From: an uncultured delta proteobacterium
GTDB taxonomy: Bacteria; Desulfobacterota; Binatia; Binatales; Binataceae
DNA: 64,000 nucleotides
Direction of reading: 5' to 3'
Assembly (NCBI GenBank): GCA_963765675.1
Contig: CAVXXK010000001.1
Location: 1,376,001-1,440,000, forward strand
The notes under the pieces are model-generated. The model was not told the origin of the DNA, ran no database searches, and saw only the letters and a list, made by a program, of their open reading frames with translations. Numbering within the stretch: the stretch's first letter is position 1; every line of letters starts with the position of its first letter. This document shows positions 18,815 through 27,160 of this stretch, piece after piece. The position numbers and the translations under genes are program-made.

Positions 18815-19588
18815 ATGGATCGTTCGGCCTATACTGCGGTGCTGCTGGCCGCAGGACGCGGCACCCGCCTTGGCGCGCTTACCGCGGATACTCCCAAGCC
18901 TCTGCTCGAGGTCGTTGGCGCTCCGCTTATCGAGCATATCGTCCGCGCATTCGTCGACGCGGGAGTGTGGCGATTCATTGTCGTGACCGGATACTTGGGC
19001 GAGCAGGTTACCGCATGGTGCGCCAAATTTGCTGAGGACAATCCGGGGATCGAGATCGATCCCGTCGCACAAGCCGAGCTGAACGGTACCGCCGGCGCGA
19101 TTCTCGCCGCGCACGAGAAGGTTGCCGACCAGCCGAGTTTCATCTTCGGATGGGGCGACGTGCTGATGGATCGCGCGAACTATCGCCGCTTCGTCGCGCG
19201 CGCCGCGGAAAATGACTTCGACCTGTTGCTCGCCGCCAACCGGATGAAGGATCCATGGCGCGGCGCAGCGGTCTATCTGAGCGCCGACATGCACGTGGAA
19301 CGCCTGGTCGAGAAGCCTGCTCAGGGCGAATCCGATACCGAATGGAACAACGCCGGGCTGTTCGCCGCCAGGCAGATACTCTTCGATTATGTCACGCAGC
19401 TTACCCCGTCGCCGCGCGGAGAGCTCGAGTTGCCGCTGGCGATTGCCGCGATGATCAACGACGGTCGCGACGTTCGCGCGATCGATATGCGCGGCTTCTG
19501 GAGCGACGTCGGCACTCCGGCCGATCTGGAGGTCGCGCGCAAGCGCTTTCATCCGAAACCCGGAACGCGAAAGCCGAAAGCCAAGTGA
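18815..19588 (+). CDS. Sugar-phosphate nucleotidyltransferase (NTP_transferase family)
   Basis: LLAAGRGTRL..PKPLL, VEKP, SPRGELEL, WSDVGTP. Confidence 0.88.
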   Translation: MDRSAYTAVLLAAGRGTRLGALTADTPKPLLEVVGAPLIEHIVRAFVDAGVWRFIVVTGYLGEQVTAWCAKFAEDNPGIEIDPVAQAELNGTAGAILAAHEKVADQPSFIFGWGDVLMDRANYRRFVARAAENDFDLLLAANRMKDPWRGAAVYLSADMHVERLVEKPAQGESDTEWNNAGLFAARQILFDYVTQLTPSPRGELELPLAIAAMINDGRDVRAIDMRGFWSDVGTPADLEVARKRFHPKPGTRKPKAK

Positions 19589-20982
19589 ACCTCAGGCCGG
19601 AAGACGGATGGAATTCCGCCGAACTCGAACGCGCTGGTGCCCAGGTCCGCGAGCTGCGCGCGCTGGGTGGTGCGGACTCGCGTATCGTCGCGGTGCGCGC
19701 GCCCGGCCGCGTCAATCTTATCGGTGAGCACACAGACTATAGCGGCTTGCCGGTCCTGCCGGCCGCGATCGATCGCTCGACGATAATCGTTGCGATCGCG
19801 TCGCTCGAACATGAGATGGTCCTGCGCAACACCGACCGAGCATTCGGATCGCGCAGGTTTCAGATCGAAAAAGCAATTCCCGCCTATCCAGTCGGCGACT
19901 GGGCCAACTACGTCAAGGCCGGTATCCAGGGCGTGATCGATCACTTCGGCGCGCGCGGCTTATCGGACGCGAAGCTGCGCGGCGCGACGATGATCGTCGA
20001 TGGCCGCGTGCCCGTTGCGGCTGGCTTGTCATCGTCGTCGGCGCTGACCGTCGCCGCGGCGCTCGCGTTCATGGCTCTCAACGGACTCGAGCTTGCGCCG
20101 CTCGAGTGCGCCGCGATGCTCGCGCGAAGCGAATGGTATGTCGGCACGCGCGGCGGCGGAATGGATCAGGCCGCGTCGCTGTTGGGCCAGCGCGATCATG
20201 CTCTCTTCATCGAATTTAATCCGCTGCGTGTGCGCGCGATCAAAATGCCCTCCGGCGCGGCGCTGGTCGTGGCCGACAGTTGCGAGGTCGCAGACAAATC
20301 CGGCAGCGTGCGTAACGAGTACAATCGCCGCGTCGTCGAATGCTCGCTGGCGGCGCGAATTATCGCGCGCCAGATGAAGCTCGACGGAGTCCGGACACTC
20401 GGCGACGTCGCGAAGGCAATCGCGAACTGGAGTGCGGCGGATTTGATCTCGATTCTGGAAGCGGCTGCGCCCCTGCGGCTCGCTCCCGACCTTGCCGACG
20501 CCGCGCATATCCTCGGAGCCTCGCGCGACGCACTTGCCGATGATCTTCTCGGCGGCGGCGCTCTTGGCGTCAAGCTAGATCCGTCAGCGCCGCTCGAGAT
20601 TCTCCGGCGCGCGAGGCACGTGCTGACCGAGACTGAGCGCGTGATCCGCGCGGCCGCGATTCTCGAAGAGGGGGATTTGGACGCGATGGGTGCGCTGATG
20701 AACGCCTCGCACGCGAGCCTGGCCGAAGACTTTGATTGCTCGACGCCGCGCCTGGACCTTCTCGTCGGCGCCGCGCGCAAGGGCGGGGCGCTCGGCGCAC
20801 GTCTGACCGGCGCGGGATTTGGCGGTTCGATCATCGCGCTCAGCCGCGCCGCCGACGTCGAGCGAATATTCGATTCGATCGATCGCGAGTACTACACGCC
20901 CCTCGGAATCGAACCTTACGGCAAACGCGCAGTCCTGCACGCCGGCGCAGGCGCGAGCACAATCGACATAGCGGCGGCGTGA
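19585..20982 (+). CDS. galK: Galactokinase / N-acetylgalactosamine kinase-like GHMP kinase
   Basis: APGRVNLIGEHTDY, GLSSSSA, GGGMDQ, GARLTGAGFGG; GTG start overlaps the upstream stop (GTGA). Confidence 0.85.
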   Translation: MNLRPEDGWNSAELERAGAQVRELRALGGADSRIVAVRAPGRVNLIGEHTDYSGLPVLPAAIDRSTIIVAIASLEHEMVLRNTDRAFGSRRFQIEKAIPAYPVGDWANYVKAGIQGVIDHFGARGLSDAKLRGATMIVDGRVPVAAGLSSSSALTVAAALAFMALNGLELAPLECAAMLARSEWYVGTRGGGMDQAASLLGQRDHALFIEFNPLRVRAIKMPSGAALVVADSCEVADKSGSVRNEYNRRVVECSLAARIIARQMKLDGVRTLGDVAKAIANWSAADLISILEAAAPLRLAPDLADAAHILGASRDALADDLLGGGALGVKLDPSAPLEILRRARHVLTETERVIRAAAILEEGDLDAMGALMNASHASLAEDFDCSTPRLDLLVGAARKGGALGARLTGAGFGGSIIALSRAADVERIFDSIDREYYTPLGIEPYGKRAVLHAGAGASTIDIAAA

Positions 20983-20989
20983 GGCGCGC

Positions 20990-22876
20990 TCAGCGGACAA
21001 AGCGCACGATCCGCGCGGAGTGCGGCGCGAGATCGATATGATCCGGAGCGGGCTCTTCGGCGCCCGTGATACCACGGATCGTGGCCGCGGCTCCCGCAAT
21101 TCCGAGCGTCGCGAGAATTACGCTCGCCGCTTCGTCCCCGCGATTTACGATGATCGCGATTGCGCCCGTCGCCATCTCCTTGACCATGGCCCTGATCGGT
21201 GCGGTGGTCATCAGATCGGCGGCCAGAACCGGCGCATCGGCGCTTCCCGAATCGATCTCCGCGCCCAGTGCCGCGGCCGCGCGATAGATCTGCCGCTCGC
21301 CGTCGCCCACCAGCGCCATGTCGTCCGAGACCAGCAGCATCCCGCCCGAGCCCGCAATAGTCGCGGCCAGCGCGCCGCGCTCGTCCGCGGTGAGCTTGGT
21401 CTCTCTGGCGCGGAGCATCAGGCAATCGGGGTCGTTGAGCCACAACCGCCGATGCATAAAGCTGCGCGCGACGATCGCGTCGAGCGCGTACACCGTGGAC
21501 GGATCACCTGAACCCTCGCTGCCCCAATACGGCGCGACGTCGGGTCCGATCCGCATCCCGTCCACGATTCCAACCGCCGCACCGAGCGGGCAGCCGCATC
21601 CGAGAATGAACGCGCTCTCGCCCGCACCGCGGCGGATCGCTTCGAGGCCGCGCCTAAGCGTCTCGGCCCGGGTGAGGTTCTGATCGTGGCGCGCGCCCTG
21701 CGCGGCGCCCGCGTAAAGAAAATCGAGTTTCAGATATGAGTATCCGAATTCGACGGTGAGCTTGCGGAATAGCCGCTCAAGATGACCAGTGAATGCGGGA
21801 TTGCTTGGGTCCAGGGCGTAGGCAAACTTGTCGTCGTTGACGGTCCAGTTCGGATTGTAGCCCGCGCGCAGCGGCCCGCCGCTTTCGTGGCGGATAAACC
21901 AATCCGGATGCTCACGCATGATACGCGCGTCGCGCGCGGCCAGAAACGGCGCGGTCCAGATTCCCGGCTCGAATCCGGCCGAACGAATCTCGCCGGCCAG
22001 GCGCGCAAGCCCGCCTGGAAATTTCGCGTTAGTCGTGTCCCAATCGCCTAACGCGCTCTGGAAGCCGTCGTCGAGCTGCACGACCTCGATCGGAAACTCG
22101 GCGCGCATCGCGGCCAGCGCGCGCAGATTCGCGCGCATATTTTCTTCGCTGATAGCATGAAAATAGTGGTACCAGGAGCACCATCCGCGCTGGTAGGCTG
22201 CGCCGATACGCGCGTTCATCGCGGCGCCTAGCCTCGCGGCCCATCGCGCGGCCATCCGCGCCGCGCTGTCCTGCGAGCGCGTGACATAGAGCGGCTCGAT
22301 CTCGCACGTTTCGCCCGGGCCTAGCTCCACGCCATCGAAAATCGCTCGCGCCACAATCCGGTCCGGCGCCGGAACGGTCAAAGTTGTGAGCTGATGCGCG
22401 GCGCCGACAAATCCCGCCAGCACGCGTTCCGGATGCCCGTCGCATTCGACGATCGTGAACAACTCAGAGGTTGACGCCTCGGGCGAATCGGCGGGACGCG
22501 TGGTTTCGCTTTGATGATTTATCCGGACGATCGAGTTGGCGCTGTCGTGGCGATGTGCCTTTGTGCCGCCGACGACCTGTGCGCCTGAACTGCTCCATGA
22601 CTGGTAGCCATGCTTGAAGAAGCGCGCAGGTGCCGAGGAATCAAAGCCGGTCGCGAGGGTGAAGCAGACCTCGTCGAGTCGAACCGGCCGTTCGCCGCGG
22701 TTGGTGATCCGCGCGTGGGCGATGCTCGTGGGGTCGGAATAGTCAAAGGAAGCGGCGATCTCCACTCCCGCGACGGTCGCCGCGCATTGTAAGGCTCGCG
22801 CAGGATGCGCCGCCGTGATCGATTGCGCGATACCGCCAGCGTCGTGCAGGCGAGCTTCGATGCTCGTAATTTCCAC
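20990..22876 (-). CDS. Alpha-galactosidase family glycoside hydrolase (GH36)
   Basis: GWCSWY, QLDDGFQ, KFPGG, GIWTAPF, YLKLDFL, MRIGPD, NDPDCL. Confidence 0.88.
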   Translation of the reverse strand: MEITSIEARLHDAGGIAQSITAAHPARALQCAATVAGVEIAASFDYSDPTSIAHARITNRGERPVRLDEVCFTLATGFDSSAPARFFKHGYQSWSSSGAQVVGGTKAHRHDSANSIVRINHQSETTRPADSPEASTSELFTIVECDGHPERVLAGFVGAAHQLTTLTVPAPDRIVARAIFDGVELGPGETCEIEPLYVTRSQDSAARMAARWAARLGAAMNARIGAAYQRGWCSWYHYFHAISEENMRANLRALAAMRAEFPIEVVQLDDGFQSALGDWDTTNAKFPGGLARLAGEIRSAGFEPGIWTAPFLAARDARIMREHPDWFIRHESGGPLRAGYNPNWTVNDDKFAYALDPSNPAFTGHLERLFRKLTVEFGYSYLKLDFLYAGAAQGARHDQNLTRAETLRRGLEAIRRGAGESAFILGCGCPLGAAVGIVDGMRIGPDVAPYWGSEGSGDPSTVYALDAIVARSFMHRRLWLNDPDCLMLRARETKLTADERGALAATIAGSGGMLLVSDDMALVGDGERQIYRAAAALGAEIDSGSADAPVLAADLMTTAPIRAMVKEMATGAIAIIVNRGDEAASVILATLGIAGAAATIRGITGAEEPAPDHIDLAPHSARIVRFVR

Positions 22877-22997
22877 GCGGCCAGCGTCGCAAACGACGCG
22901 CTGCGCGGCAACCCCGGGACAATCGCGAAAAGCGCTCGATTGCGCTGCATTAGTTTGGCAGACTGACGCTTGCTTTCACCTCCGGGGAGAGACGCTT

Positions 22998-24323
22998 ATC
23001 GATACCGTACCAGAGATAGAAGCCGTCGAAGCCGGAGAACCCGGCGACGCGGCCGCGCTTCACGACAACCTGTGGGAAACGCGGCTGGCCGCGTTCCGCG
23101 CACTACGGCATCGCAACTTTCGCCTGTTTTTCGTCGGACAACTCACCTCGCTTATCGGCACCTGGATGCAGTCGGTCGCGCAGGCGTGGCTGGTGCTGCG
23201 GCTGAGCAACTCCTCGATGATGCTGGGGTTGGTCGCATTCGCCGGCTACATGCCGATCGTGCTGGTGGGTTTGTTTGCCGGCGTGGTGGTCGATCACGTC
23301 GATCGGCGCCGCCTGATTATCGCGACGCAGATACTGCTGATGCTGAGCGCGTTCGTGCTCGCCGCTCTCACCTGGGCCGGAGTGGTGCGAGTCGAGCACG
23401 TGATGATCCTGGCAGCGCTCAACGGGCTGGTGAGTTCGTTCGACATGCCCGGGCGGCAGGCGTTCGTGGTCGAGATGGTGGGCAAAGAAGATTTGCCCAA
23501 CGCGATCTCGATGAACTCGATGATCTTCAACGGCGCGCGGATGGTCGGCCCGGCTATCGCGGGAATCCTGATCGCGATCACCGGCGTGGCCGGATGTTTC
23601 TTCTTAAACGGCGTCAGCTACCTTGCCGTTATCTGGAGCCTGCTCGAGATGGACACGCCCCGGCGCGAGCGCCGCCAGTTCGGCGCCGTGATGCTGCGCC
23701 AGGTGCTCGCGGGCTTGACCTATGTCTGGGAGCATCGTCCGAGCTTCTACCTGATGCTGTTGGTCGCGATTAACAGCGGCTTCGCGCTGCAGTACACGGT
23801 GCTGATTCCGATGTTCGCGCGCGACCTGCTGCACAGCGGCGCCAAAGGCTATGGCTTTTTGATGGCGGCGCAGGGCGTCGGCGCAGTGGCCGCCGCGATC
23901 GTGATGAACGTCCGTTCCGACGCGCCGAGGGCCTTGCGCCAGAACCTGGTATTCGGATTGTTTTGCACCGCCGCCGCGATCCTCGTGTTCGGAATTTCCA
24001 AGTGGATGTGGCTCTCGATAGTCGCGCAGATGTTTATCGGCGCGGGCTTGATGAACCACATGGTAACGACCAACACGATGCTGCAACTGTTCGTTGCCGA
24101 CGAGCTGCGCGGCCGCGTCATGAGCATCTACACGCTGTCGTTCATCGGCACCGCGCCGATTGGAAGCCTCGCCGTCGGTTACGTCGGCGAGCGTCTGACC
24201 CCGCAGACCGCGGTGATGATCTGTTCGGGCTTTGCACTGGCTTGTGCGCTCTTGCTGTTGACGCGGCTCAGGATGTTCGCGCAAGCGCAGGAAGCGATCC
24301 TCGAGATGGCGCCGCAGCCGTGA
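22998..24323 (+). CDS. MFS transporter (MFS_3/EntS-like)
   Basis: FRALRHRNFRLFF..SLIGTWMQ, DHVDRRRL, FDMPGRQAF, ELRGRVMS; start uncertain (ATC after GGAG). Confidence 0.85.
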   Translation: MDTVPEIEAVEAGEPGDAAALHDNLWETRLAAFRALRHRNFRLFFVGQLTSLIGTWMQSVAQAWLVLRLSNSSMMLGLVAFAGYMPIVLVGLFAGVVVDHVDRRRLIIATQILLMLSAFVLAALTWAGVVRVEHVMILAALNGLVSSFDMPGRQAFVVEMVGKEDLPNAISMNSMIFNGARMVGPAIAGILIAITGVAGCFFLNGVSYLAVIWSLLEMDTPRRERRQFGAVMLRQVLAGLTYVWEHRPSFYLMLLVAINSGFALQYTVLIPMFARDLLHSGAKGYGFLMAAQGVGAVAAAIVMNVRSDAPRALRQNLVFGLFCTAAAILVFGISKWMWLSIVAQMFIGAGLMNHMVTTNTMLQLFVADELRGRVMSIYTLSFIGTAPIGSLAVGYVGERLTPQTAVMICSGFALACALLLLTRLRMFAQAQEAILEMAPQP

Positions 24324-25743: not shown

Positions 25744-27160
25744 GTGGCATCGGGACCGGCAAAACACGTAAGCGCGGCGAGCAAGTCGCGCACGCAGGCG
25801 CTCAGCGCGATGCCTCCGATCGACGAATGCCTGCGCGCCGCCGAAAACGAACCCAAGTTGGCCGCGCTTGGCGGTGCGTATTTGAAGATGCTCCTGCGCC
25901 GCGCGCAAGCTGACCTGCGCGAGGAACTTCGAGCCGGACGCGGCGGCGACCGCGCCGCGCTGCTTGCCGAGATTATCCGCCGCGCCGCGAACGCCGCTGC
26001 CGCCGATGAACCTCATCTGCGGCCTGTCGTGAACGCGACCGGAGTGGTGCTCCACACCAACTTGGGCCGCGCGATCCTGGCCGAGTCAGCGATCGAGGCG
26101 ATCGAGATGGCGGCGCGATCGGCGGTGAACCTCGAGTACGATCTCGAATCGGGCGAGCGCGGCGATCGTGACGCGATCGTCGAGGAAGTACTCTGCGCGC
26201 TGACCGGCGCCGAGGCCGCCACCGTCGTCAACAACAACGCCGCGGCGGTGCTGCTGGTGCTGGGTACGCTCGCGCTCGGACGCGAGGTGGTCGTGTCGCG
26301 CGGCGAGCTGATCGAGATCGGCGGCGCGTTCCGGATTCCGGACGTGATGACTCGCGCCGGCGCGCGTCTGCGAGAGGTCGGCACGACGAACCGGACGCAT
26401 CCGCGCGACTTCGCCGACGCGATCGGTCCGGATACCGCGCTCCTGATGAAGGTGCATCCGTCGAACTACCGGATCGTCGGTTTTACGAGCGACGTCCCTC
26501 TCGAAGAGCTGGTGCGGATCGGGCGCGAGCAGGGCATCGACGTGGTCGAGGACCTCGGCGCGGGCGCGTTGGTCGATCTCTCGCGCTACGGATTGCCGCC
26601 GCGAGCCGATTATCGCCGATCGGATTGCGGCGGGTGCCGCGATTGTGACTTTTTCAGGCGACAAGCTGCTCGGTGGTCCGCAATCCGGACTCGTCGTCGG
26701 GCGGCGGAGTCTGATCGCGAAGCTCAAAGCGAATCCCCTTCGCCGCGCGCTCCGATGCGACAAGCTCACGCTCGCGGCGCTCGAAGCGACGCTCAGAATC
26801 TATCTGCGCTCGGCGGACGTTGCCGATGAAATTCCGACGCTGCGCCTGATGCGGCGAAAGCCGGCGGAGTTGCGCACGATTGCGGAGCGCGCTCGCGCGA
26901 TAATCTCCGAACGGATCGGCGCGGAATTCACGGTCGAAGTAACGGACGCCGCGTCGCGCGCCGGCTCGGGCTCGCTGCCCGACGCGGCGCTCGAGTCGGC
27001 GGGCGTCAGGATCACGCACGCACGAATCTCTCCCAGCGCGATTGCCGCGCGCTTCCGCCGCGCGAGAATTATCGGGCGCGTCGCCGATGATTCGTTTATT
27101 CTCGATATGCGGACGATCGAAGATCCTGCGGTGTTCGCAGTCGATCTAAAACACGAATGA
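25744..27160 (+). CDS. selA: L-seryl-tRNA(Sec) selenium transferase (split by an apparent 1-nt insertion near 26599)
   Basis: [46 protein letters not shown], then [11 protein letters not shown] in the next frame; removing one C gives GLP-REPII. Confidence 0.9.

Follow-up and report, generated by a model that had tools for sequence, protein, structure and literature searches.

A long-form galactokinase overlapping a short nucleotidyltransferase: a candidate GalT-independent route of galactose activation in Binataceae

In plants and trypanosomatids, a galactokinase (GalK) and a UDP-sugar pyrophosphorylase (USP) make up the Isselbacher route, which is used where the uridylyltransferase GALT is absent or limiting (PMC6329318). 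Here we describe a bacterial locus that resembles this route, in a window of 64,000 nucleotides (nt) from contig CAVXXK010000001.1 of an uncultured member of the Binataceae (assembly GCA_963765675.1, positions 1,376,001 to 1,440,000). In this locus a nucleotidyltransferase gene overlaps the gene of a galactokinase-family kinase, which is met by a convergent gene of glycoside hydrolase family 36 (GH36). As in the Isselbacher route, an anomeric GHMP galactokinase of the long form would act first and a nucleoside diphosphate (NDP) sugar would then be made directly from galactose 1-phosphate (Gal-1-P) (PMC6329318; PMC4722067). The two systems differ in their second enzyme, USP belonging to the UDPGP family whereas the Binataceae transferase is a 257-residue PF00483 protein of the RmlA/GlmU-N type, and in that the Binataceae genes overlap in a bacterial operon, next to which lies the gene of a predicted alpha-galactosidase.

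Two fused enzymes offer a second comparison. The Bacteroides L-fucokinase/GDP-fucose pyrophosphorylase FKP is reported to have its nucleotidyltransferase first and its GHMP sugar-1-kinase second, as does the Binataceae locus (PMC11982464), and the zebrafish glucuronokinase/pyrophosphorylase DrGKUP shows the same order and likewise salvages a free sugar to an NDP-sugar, with a pyrophosphorylase domain that resembles short bacterial nucleotidyltransferases (PMC3938481). Whereas these are single polypeptides acting on fucose or glucuronate, the Binataceae pair consists of two open reading frames (ORFs) that share 4 nt, and its kinase is of the galactokinase family; fused relatives of the pair are known in other lineages. 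The closest solved relatives of the kinase are human GALK2 (PDB 2a2c/2a2d), whose alignment includes a segment at about residues 264-340, and yeast Gal1 (2aj4). Unlike the Binataceae kinase, human GALK2 has Phe instead of Tyr in the EYN motif, and the Binataceae kinase lies outside the eukaryote clade. With galETKM of E. coli K-12 the locus shares a galactokinase-family kinase as its first enzyme and perhaps a GalE-like short-chain dehydrogenase/reductase (SDR) to finish the pathway; it differs in having no detected GalT, in a second step that would be of the pyrophosphorylase type and not a uridylyl exchange, and in a kinase separated from E. coli GalK by a branch with full support. The GH36 protein resembles Thermotoga maritima GalA (TmGalA, PDB 1zy9) over the catalytic barrel, where the Asp residues of the KxD and GPD motifs are aligned, and differs in its N-terminal 190 or so residues, which do not align. 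In the literature searched, no bacterial pairing of a GALK2-like kinase and a nucleotidyltransferase was described, and other papers may exist. What sets the locus apart is the combination, namely a long-form galactokinase and a short PF00483 transferase in a bacterial overlapping operon, with a TmGalA-type neighbour, in a genus lacking GalT.

The transferase gene (P0001) runs from 18815 to 19588 of the window on the + strand, with an ATG start at 18815 and a product of 257 residues. The kinase gene (P0002) follows at 19585..20982 (+), with a GTG start at 19585 and 465 residues, and the overlap of its start codon with the transferase stop codon, GTGA at 19585..19588 (+), can be read straight from the sequence. 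We lean, with some reserve, towards reading this locus as a GalT-independent galactose activation module that leads from galactose through Gal-1-P to UDP-galactose. A cytoplasmic TmGalA-like GH36 enzyme would free alpha-D-galactose from imported alpha-galactosides; the long-form kinase would phosphorylate galactose with ATP at O1, giving alpha-Gal-1-P; the coupled nucleotidyltransferase would convert Gal-1-P and UTP or dTTP to NDP-galactose and pyrophosphate; and UDP-galactose would serve glycosyltransferases or be turned into UDP-glucose by a GalE-like SDR encoded elsewhere in the genome. Gene structure, family membership, intact catalytic motifs, the lack of a detectable GalT and the coupling of kinase with transferase are shown by the data below; which substrates and which nucleotide are used, what the GH36 protein contributes and where the NDP-galactose goes are predictions.

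By its profile matches, P0002 belongs to the long-form GHMP kinases of the galactokinase family. It exceeds the cut-off of the TIGR00131 gal_kin equivalog (281.4 vs 226.65 bits), is the one gal_kin match in the source genome, and carries the Pfam domains GalKase_gal_bdg (PF10509, 62.6 bits), GHMP_kinases_N (PF00288, 59.8 bits) and GHMP_kinases_C (PF08544, 57 bits). The GTG start is supported by a database entry (P0004) that is identical to P0002 over its 465 residues. The galactokinase signatures GRVNLIGEHxDY, GLSSSxA and the Asp of GGMDQ are all present; on the + strand, GRVNLIGEHTDY lies at 19705-19740, GLSSSSAL at 20023-20046, GGGMDQ at 20152-20169 and NEYNRRVVEC at 20314-20343. In an alignment, GRVNLIGEHTDY, GGGMDQ and the EYN Tyr are common to P0002, E. 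coli GalK and fungal and algal galactokinases, and we take the residues of these motifs to be those that contact the sugar. The peptide motifs listed in a first-pass annotation of this DNA (ARSEWYVGTRGGGMDQAAS, IEFNPLR, KMPSGA, DSC and YNRRVVEC) were all found.

Among solved structures, human GALK2 (2a2c), a kinase of N-acetylgalactosamine (GalNAc), is the best match to P0002 at 240.8 bits, followed by yeast Gal1 (177.3), Gal3 (about 150), human GALK1 (140) and the short GalKs of Pyrococcus (135.5) and Lactococcus (124.8). GALK2 aligns in a single stretch over residues 36-438, and the alignments of the short GalKs are broken in two, since these proteins lack the segment at about 264-340 (query numbering). 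The EYN position is Tyr in P0002 and Gal1 and Phe in human GALK2; it is a weak substrate marker, because a moth homologue also has Tyr. The first-pass annotation had called the kinase eukaryote-type. It is indeed far nearer to GALK2 and Gal1 than to GalK of the E. coli type, but it does not fall in the eukaryote clade, and GGMDQ, which had been put forward as a eukaryotic hallmark, does set it apart from E. coli (CGIMDQ) but is also carried by actinobacterial GalK-GalT fusions of the classical clade.

The kinase family is large: 16,866 representatives match at E<=1e-3, of which 2,271 reach E<=1e-30, and 7,995 of the 8,000 candidates scored in the search with P0002 reached E<=1e-3. The best 120 matches listed are all at least 62% identical to P0002, and those among them that have names are all Binataceae; the named close homologues come from 'Candidatus Binataceae' metagenome-assembled genomes (MAGs), and many homologues bear the JGI label 'N-acetylgalactosamine kinase'. 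At 36-44% identity, the small number of further representatives with names are bacterial ('bacterium', Fibrobacterota and Elusimicrobia), and the cluster member lists yield few taxa (bacterium, Fibrobacterota, Elusimicrobia and one yeast). A protein atlas ranked an Acidobacteriota cluster first for the kinase and Chlorophyta and Streptophyta galactokinases next.

Our final tree of 64 kinase domains (IQ-TREE, quick search, SH-aLRT support only) includes 7 of the 13 fused rows and two of the three GalK-GalT rows of an earlier set. PDB scores stand in for named human GALK1 and GALK2, AtGALK, GalAK and arabinokinase, and the eukaryotes included are yeast P0171, two chytrids, a lichen fungus, a basidiomycete, a green alga and a moth. 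A branch with support of 100 splits seven classical GalKs (E. coli GalK, four from class-level relatives and two actinobacterial GalK-GalT fusions) from the remaining 57 rows, P0002 among them, which places the kinase outside ordinary bacterial GalK; a position inside it would have spoken against the first-pass interpretation. The eukaryote clade (support 98) comprises the seven named eukaryotic sequences and two further rows. Outside it, the Binataceae clade (support 100) sits in an assemblage with weak support (82-83) where bacterial long forms are joined by a derived short-form clade and by long forms at class level. The Binataceae kinase is accordingly placed within a large bacterial radiation, as a bacterial branch of the second, long-form galactokinase family, of which Gal1 and GALK2 are another branch. 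A first FastTree, with E. coli GalK as its sole classical member, had put that protein beside P0002; in view of the tree with six more classical GalKs, we regard this as long-branch attraction.

P0001 is a single-domain PF00483 protein of the short RmlA/GlmU-N type (NTP_transferase, 106 bits). Its Pfam matches are solely PF00483, PF12804 and PF01128, with none to the UDPGP (USP/UGP/UAP) family. The LLAAGRGTRL loop lies at 18842-18871 (+) and the motif AQAELNGTAGA at 19067-19099 (+). Its best NCBIfam matches, all under their cut-offs, are Arch_glmU (156.8 bits), AglF (a UTP-glucose-1-phosphate uridylyltransferase, 142.4) and rmlA_long (129.4), and these are families that use uridine or thymidine nucleotides. 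The Gln of AQAELNGTAGA aligns with a Gln in E. coli RffH, RfbA, GlmU and GalU that presumably contacts the uracil or thymine base, and from this one aligned residue we infer that UTP or dTTP is the likeliest nucleotide.

Several independent lines give good support to a functional link between kinase and transferase. We surveyed 41 related genomes, 25 of them from the family, including the source genome (G000). All 15 family genomes with the long kinase (G000-G010, G013, G014, G018 and G023) also contain a P0001 orthologue (E<=1e-30), and none of the 10 without the kinase does; two genomes of another family (G025, G033) have a P0001 homologue at 47-48% identity. A scan of contigs returned 79 loci, 78 from Binataceae or Binataceae-like organisms and one from an unclassified bacterium (L113), so that it speaks to synteny within Binataceae and not to other phyla. 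Of the 74 loci with at least 800 nt of flank, 72 had the P0001 orthologue immediately upstream of the kinase gene. The operon of the unclassified bacterium, which is unrelated to the Binataceae, reads NTP_transferase, kinase, SSF symporter, CN_hydrolase, and its transferase is not orthologous to P0001.

Fusions of the two enzymes provide a further line. The kinase has 273 homologues of 815-2325 residues at E<=1e-20, and among the 120 of these that were listed, 102 contain PF00483 and/or PF12804 and seven are GalK-GalT fusions. The transferase is N-terminal and the kinase C-terminal in all five fused proteins scanned. Shorter fusions include P0168 (739 residues, seven members, contigs up to 989 kb), P0220 (798 residues) and P0137 (658 residues), which shares 51% identity with P0001 in its N-terminal part and 47% with P0002 in its kinase part. 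Transferase-kinase fusions occupy three separate places in the tree. The tight linkage claimed by the first-pass annotation is thus borne out by the 4-nt overlap, by matching presence and absence, and by fusion.

One large clade of fused bacterial proteins (P0302-P0419, e.g. P0327, P0345 and P0373), of about 820-1090 residues, joins an N-terminal GlmU-like part to a C-terminal part resembling long-form galactokinases; in P0327 the former matches GlmU at 84.5 bits and the latter GALK2 at 113.7 bits. All 10 members examined have an altered sugar pocket, with GEHTDY replaced by GRHVDH, GGMDQ by GS(A/G)DH and the EYN Tyr by Phe, which points to a different sugar. We found no solved structure of a GlmU-like/galactokinase-like fusion. 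The GalK-GalT fusions (P0308, P0353, P0360, P0364, P0377, P0394 and P0413), of about 830-930 residues, come from actinobacteria (e.g. Cellulosimicrobium) and a basidiomycete yeast, and correspond, on the Leloir side, to the fusions of kinase and nucleotidyltransferase.

The window had been reported to contain neither galT nor galE. This holds, no galE-like match being found within it, and the absence of galT extends to the whole source genome, a Binataceae MAG of 4.5 Mb in 16 contigs (completeness 95.6%): a genome search, which the first-pass annotation had proposed, gave zero matches in six-frame searches with PF01087, TIGR00209 and TIGR01239. Among the 10 genomes of the same genus, PF01087 is found in one (G008) and the kinase in all; removing the unpublished genome G010 leaves nine and does not change the conclusions. 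The kinase of the source genus therefore appears, from gene content, to work without GalT. GalT-like genes also occur in family genomes that lack the long kinase (G011, G012, G016 and G021). Those of G012, G016 and G021 (L116, L117), which score 58-69 bits to PF01087 in frames of about 345-360 residues, are in genomes with no galactokinase match, and GalT-like genes of similar size (about 345 residues) and score occur beside the kinase in G013, G014 and G018. The GalT-like genes of the family are untied to galactokinase and may do something other than transfer uridylyl groups in the Leloir pathway.

The GH36 gene (P0003, Pfam Melibiase) occupies 20990..22876 on the - strand, encodes 628 residues and converges on the kinase, leaving 7 nt to the kinase stop. 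P0003 matches TmGalA at 274 bits over residues 190-534 and a GH36 galactosaminidase (9awt) at only 33 bits. Its Asp385 (in YLKLDF, 21736-21707) and Asp446 (in MRIGPDVAP, 21556-21530) align with Asp 339 and 399 of 1zy9, an entry with a 12-residue tag; going by their roles in TmGalA, we take the former to be the nucleophile and the latter the acid/base. The protein is predicted to be a GH36 alpha-galactosidase of the TmGalA type. By eye, no N-terminal signal peptide is evident, and the substrates of P0003 are therefore probably imported. Of the 41 genomes surveyed, 19 contain GH36, and 18 of these 19 have a galactokinase match of some type, although these genomes are kin and the counts are not independent. 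The tie between GH36 and galactokinase suggested by the first-pass annotation is in this respect upheld. Four kinase-positive genomes lack GH36 (G025, G030, G032 and G040), and in G014 and G018 it is kept but not adjacent (4 kb off and on another contig). The link of GH36 to the kinase is weaker than that of the transferase.

A number of observations weigh against a dedicated galactose module. For the transferase, the top PDB matches, GMPPB (69.8 bits) and HddC (68.1 bits), are GDP-sugar enzymes, followed by a mycobacterial-type nucleotidyltransferase (67 bits) and a Sulfolobus dual sugar-1-phosphate enzyme (60 bits), and GTP may be the nucleotide used. In three other families of the class (L119-L121), no transferase gene adjoins the long-form kinase, and the fusion P0137 is a single sequence from short contigs that could be an assembly frameshift across the 4-nt overlap. 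GalT-like genes are present in 4 of the 15 kinase-positive family genomes (G008, G013, G014 and G018); because such genes occur with and without the kinase, the two are not simple alternatives. For the last step, the source genome has 13 SDR matches to the GalE model, none above its cut-off. The best of them is a 304-residue protein that matches GalE better than any other NCBIfam model, yet it reaches only 163 bits where 262.3 are required. A second GalE-like SDR gene (G000:C6:375671-376595, L003) is split over two frames, matching E. coli GalE by tblastn in frames 1 and 2.

The neighbourhood is equally open to doubt. One genome (G020) has GH36 without any kinase match, and being convergent, the GH36 gene is not co-transcribed with the kinase. 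In Binataceae (tblastn at E<=1e-15, counted over loci with enough flank), GH36 was conserved in 67 of 75 loci, the MFS transporter in 54 of 72 and P450 in 5 of 68, compared with 68/70 for ribBA, 64/68 for dsbD, 50/67 for selA and 46/63 for gyrB. The adjacency of GH36 and transporter is no better kept than that of ribBA, dsbD or selA and may be inherited synteny; since the whole Binataceae neighbourhood is syntenic, conserved adjacency carries little functional information, and the use of neighbourhood conservation as evidence, as first suggested, falls away. The adjoining transporter is of an efflux-type family, and no importer of alpha-galactosides was identified.

These points bear most directly on the possibility that salvage involves just the kinase-transferase pair, making NDP-galactose from any free galactose purely for envelope or exopolysaccharide and not for catabolism, with GH36 and the transporter as mere syntenic neighbours. 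The housekeeping synteny that equals theirs, the convergent orientation of GH36, the lack of a GalE above cut-off and the retention of the pair in G014 and G018 with GH36 elsewhere (4 kb away or on another contig) all agree with it; the galactokinase in 18 of the 19 GH36-positive genomes of the 41 speaks the other way, with the reservation that these genomes are kin and not independent. We regard this explanation as unlikely, if the most serious of those we weighed. That an ordinary Leloir pathway operates, with a GalT that the assembly lacks or that has diverged beyond detection, would fit a genome that is 95.6% complete and has frameshifted genes (selA and a GalE-like gene) in a family where some members have GalT-like genes. 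It is nevertheless highly improbable, given that three GalT models came back blank in six-frame searches, which tolerate frameshifts, that 9 of 10 congeners gave no GalT either, and that the family's GalT-like genes are also present in genomes without any galactokinase (G012, G016 and G021).

Other readings concern the sugar. The locus could salvage GalNAc or galactosamine, as GALK2 and AGX1 do, by means of a GalNAc kinase, a transferase that makes UDP-GalNAc and an alpha-N-acetylgalactosaminidase. The closest solved relative of the kinase is after all the human GalNAc kinase, the JGI names of many homologues say the same, and the transferase has an archaeal GlmU-type sugar-1-phosphate nucleotidylyltransferase subfamily as its best NCBIfam match and the Sulfolobus dual sugar-1-phosphate nucleotidylyltransferase (2ggo/5z09) among its PDB matches. 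We nonetheless consider GalNAc quite unlikely and rate galactose well above it, because the GH36 protein is TmGalA-like with both Asp residues in place (274 bits to the alpha-galactosidase, 33 to the galactosaminidase 9awt) and the kinase keeps its canonical galactose motifs intact; this option of the first-pass annotation is not supported. The long-form family moreover includes yeast Gal1, deposited as a galactokinase, and named fungal and algal galactokinases, the Binataceae clade stands apart from the eukaryote clade, and the EYN Tyr is as in Gal1, not Phe as in human GALK2, weak marker though it is in view of the moth homologue. It seems very improbable that the sugar is a different one of galacto configuration, for example L-arabinose or a uronic acid, with the GH36 protein acting for instance as a beta-L-arabinopyranosidase. 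Plant arabinokinase and galacturonic acid kinase are relatives of galactokinase, a related fused clade clearly has an altered sugar pocket, and the sole NCBIfam match of the GH36 protein is a beta-L-arabinopyranosidase model, albeit at 21.5 bits against a cut-off of 1100. Unlike that fused clade, P0002 retains every canonical galactokinase motif and passes the galactokinase equivalog, and similarity to TmGalA dominates for GH36.

Next to the GH36 gene, and divergent from its start, lies an MFS_3 (EntS/DHA3-like) transporter gene at 22860..24323 (+), whose start is ambiguous (ATG 22860 or GTG 22815; Pfam domain from about 23090). With it, the four-gene layout described by the first-pass annotation (coordinates, GTGA overlap, 7-nt gap and divergent MFS gene) is confirmed. 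The transporter scores 238 bits to Pfam MFS_3, 199 bits to TIGR00900 (DHA3), under the cut-off, and 128 bits to EntS; its best matches are MFS_3, TIGR00900, EntS, Tet(V) and Mef, and none is a sugar porter or a member of the glycoside-pentoside-hexuronide family. It is of the EntS/DHA3 efflux type, and a role in the pathway as a sugar transporter is doubtful. Across Binataceae loci it is markedly better conserved than its neighbours, with about 75-97% identity against about 58-90% for the kinase, transferase and GH36.

The cluster is flanked on one side by gyrA, gyrB, a DsbD-like protein and RibBA, and on the other by P450, selA and a luciferase-like oxidoreductase, all of them housekeeping genes or genes unconnected with sugars. 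A promoter and terminator scan of the region gave no signal above that of shuffled sequences. The selA gene is broken across two frames (25744-27160, +), with a frameshift or assembly error near 26.6 kb: the ORF at 25744-26829 covers SelA profile positions 1-193 and that at 26645-27160 positions 207-366. Together with the split GalE-like gene, this suggests assembly indel errors or real pseudogenes. In a class-level relative (genome G029, L119:4295-6835, -), the gene adjoining the long-form kinase encodes an 846-residue protein with a C-terminal APH-type phosphotransferase domain (134.5 bits) and about 540 N-terminal residues without a Pfam match (E<=1e-4).

Taken more broadly, long-form kinases and short nucleotidyltransferases might constitute a widespread and unrecognised bacterial route from free sugars to NDP-sugars, one that would replace GalT for galactose released by alpha-galactosidase in Binataceae, that would have been fused at least three times in other phyla (among the named examples are Armatimonadota-like bacteria, Planctomycetota, Hydrogenedentota and Anaerolineae), and that in one large fused clade would have been retuned to another sugar. 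We put this forward tentatively, as a wider proposal that we hold with less confidence than our reading of the Binataceae locus itself. The advance would be incremental and not conceptual, since the principle of an anomeric kinase followed by a pyrophosphorylase is already known. Coupled or fused kinase-transferase pairs are candidates for one-pot enzymatic synthesis of NDP-sugars. If the galactose activation module is real, it would correct automatic labels such as 'galactokinase', which implies the Leloir pathway, or 'N-acetylgalactosamine kinase'. It would also represent a bacterial counterpart of the GalT-independent galactose route of plants and protists, built with a different nucleotidyltransferase family, and would explain how Binataceae, which are common soil bacteria, handle galactose without GalT.

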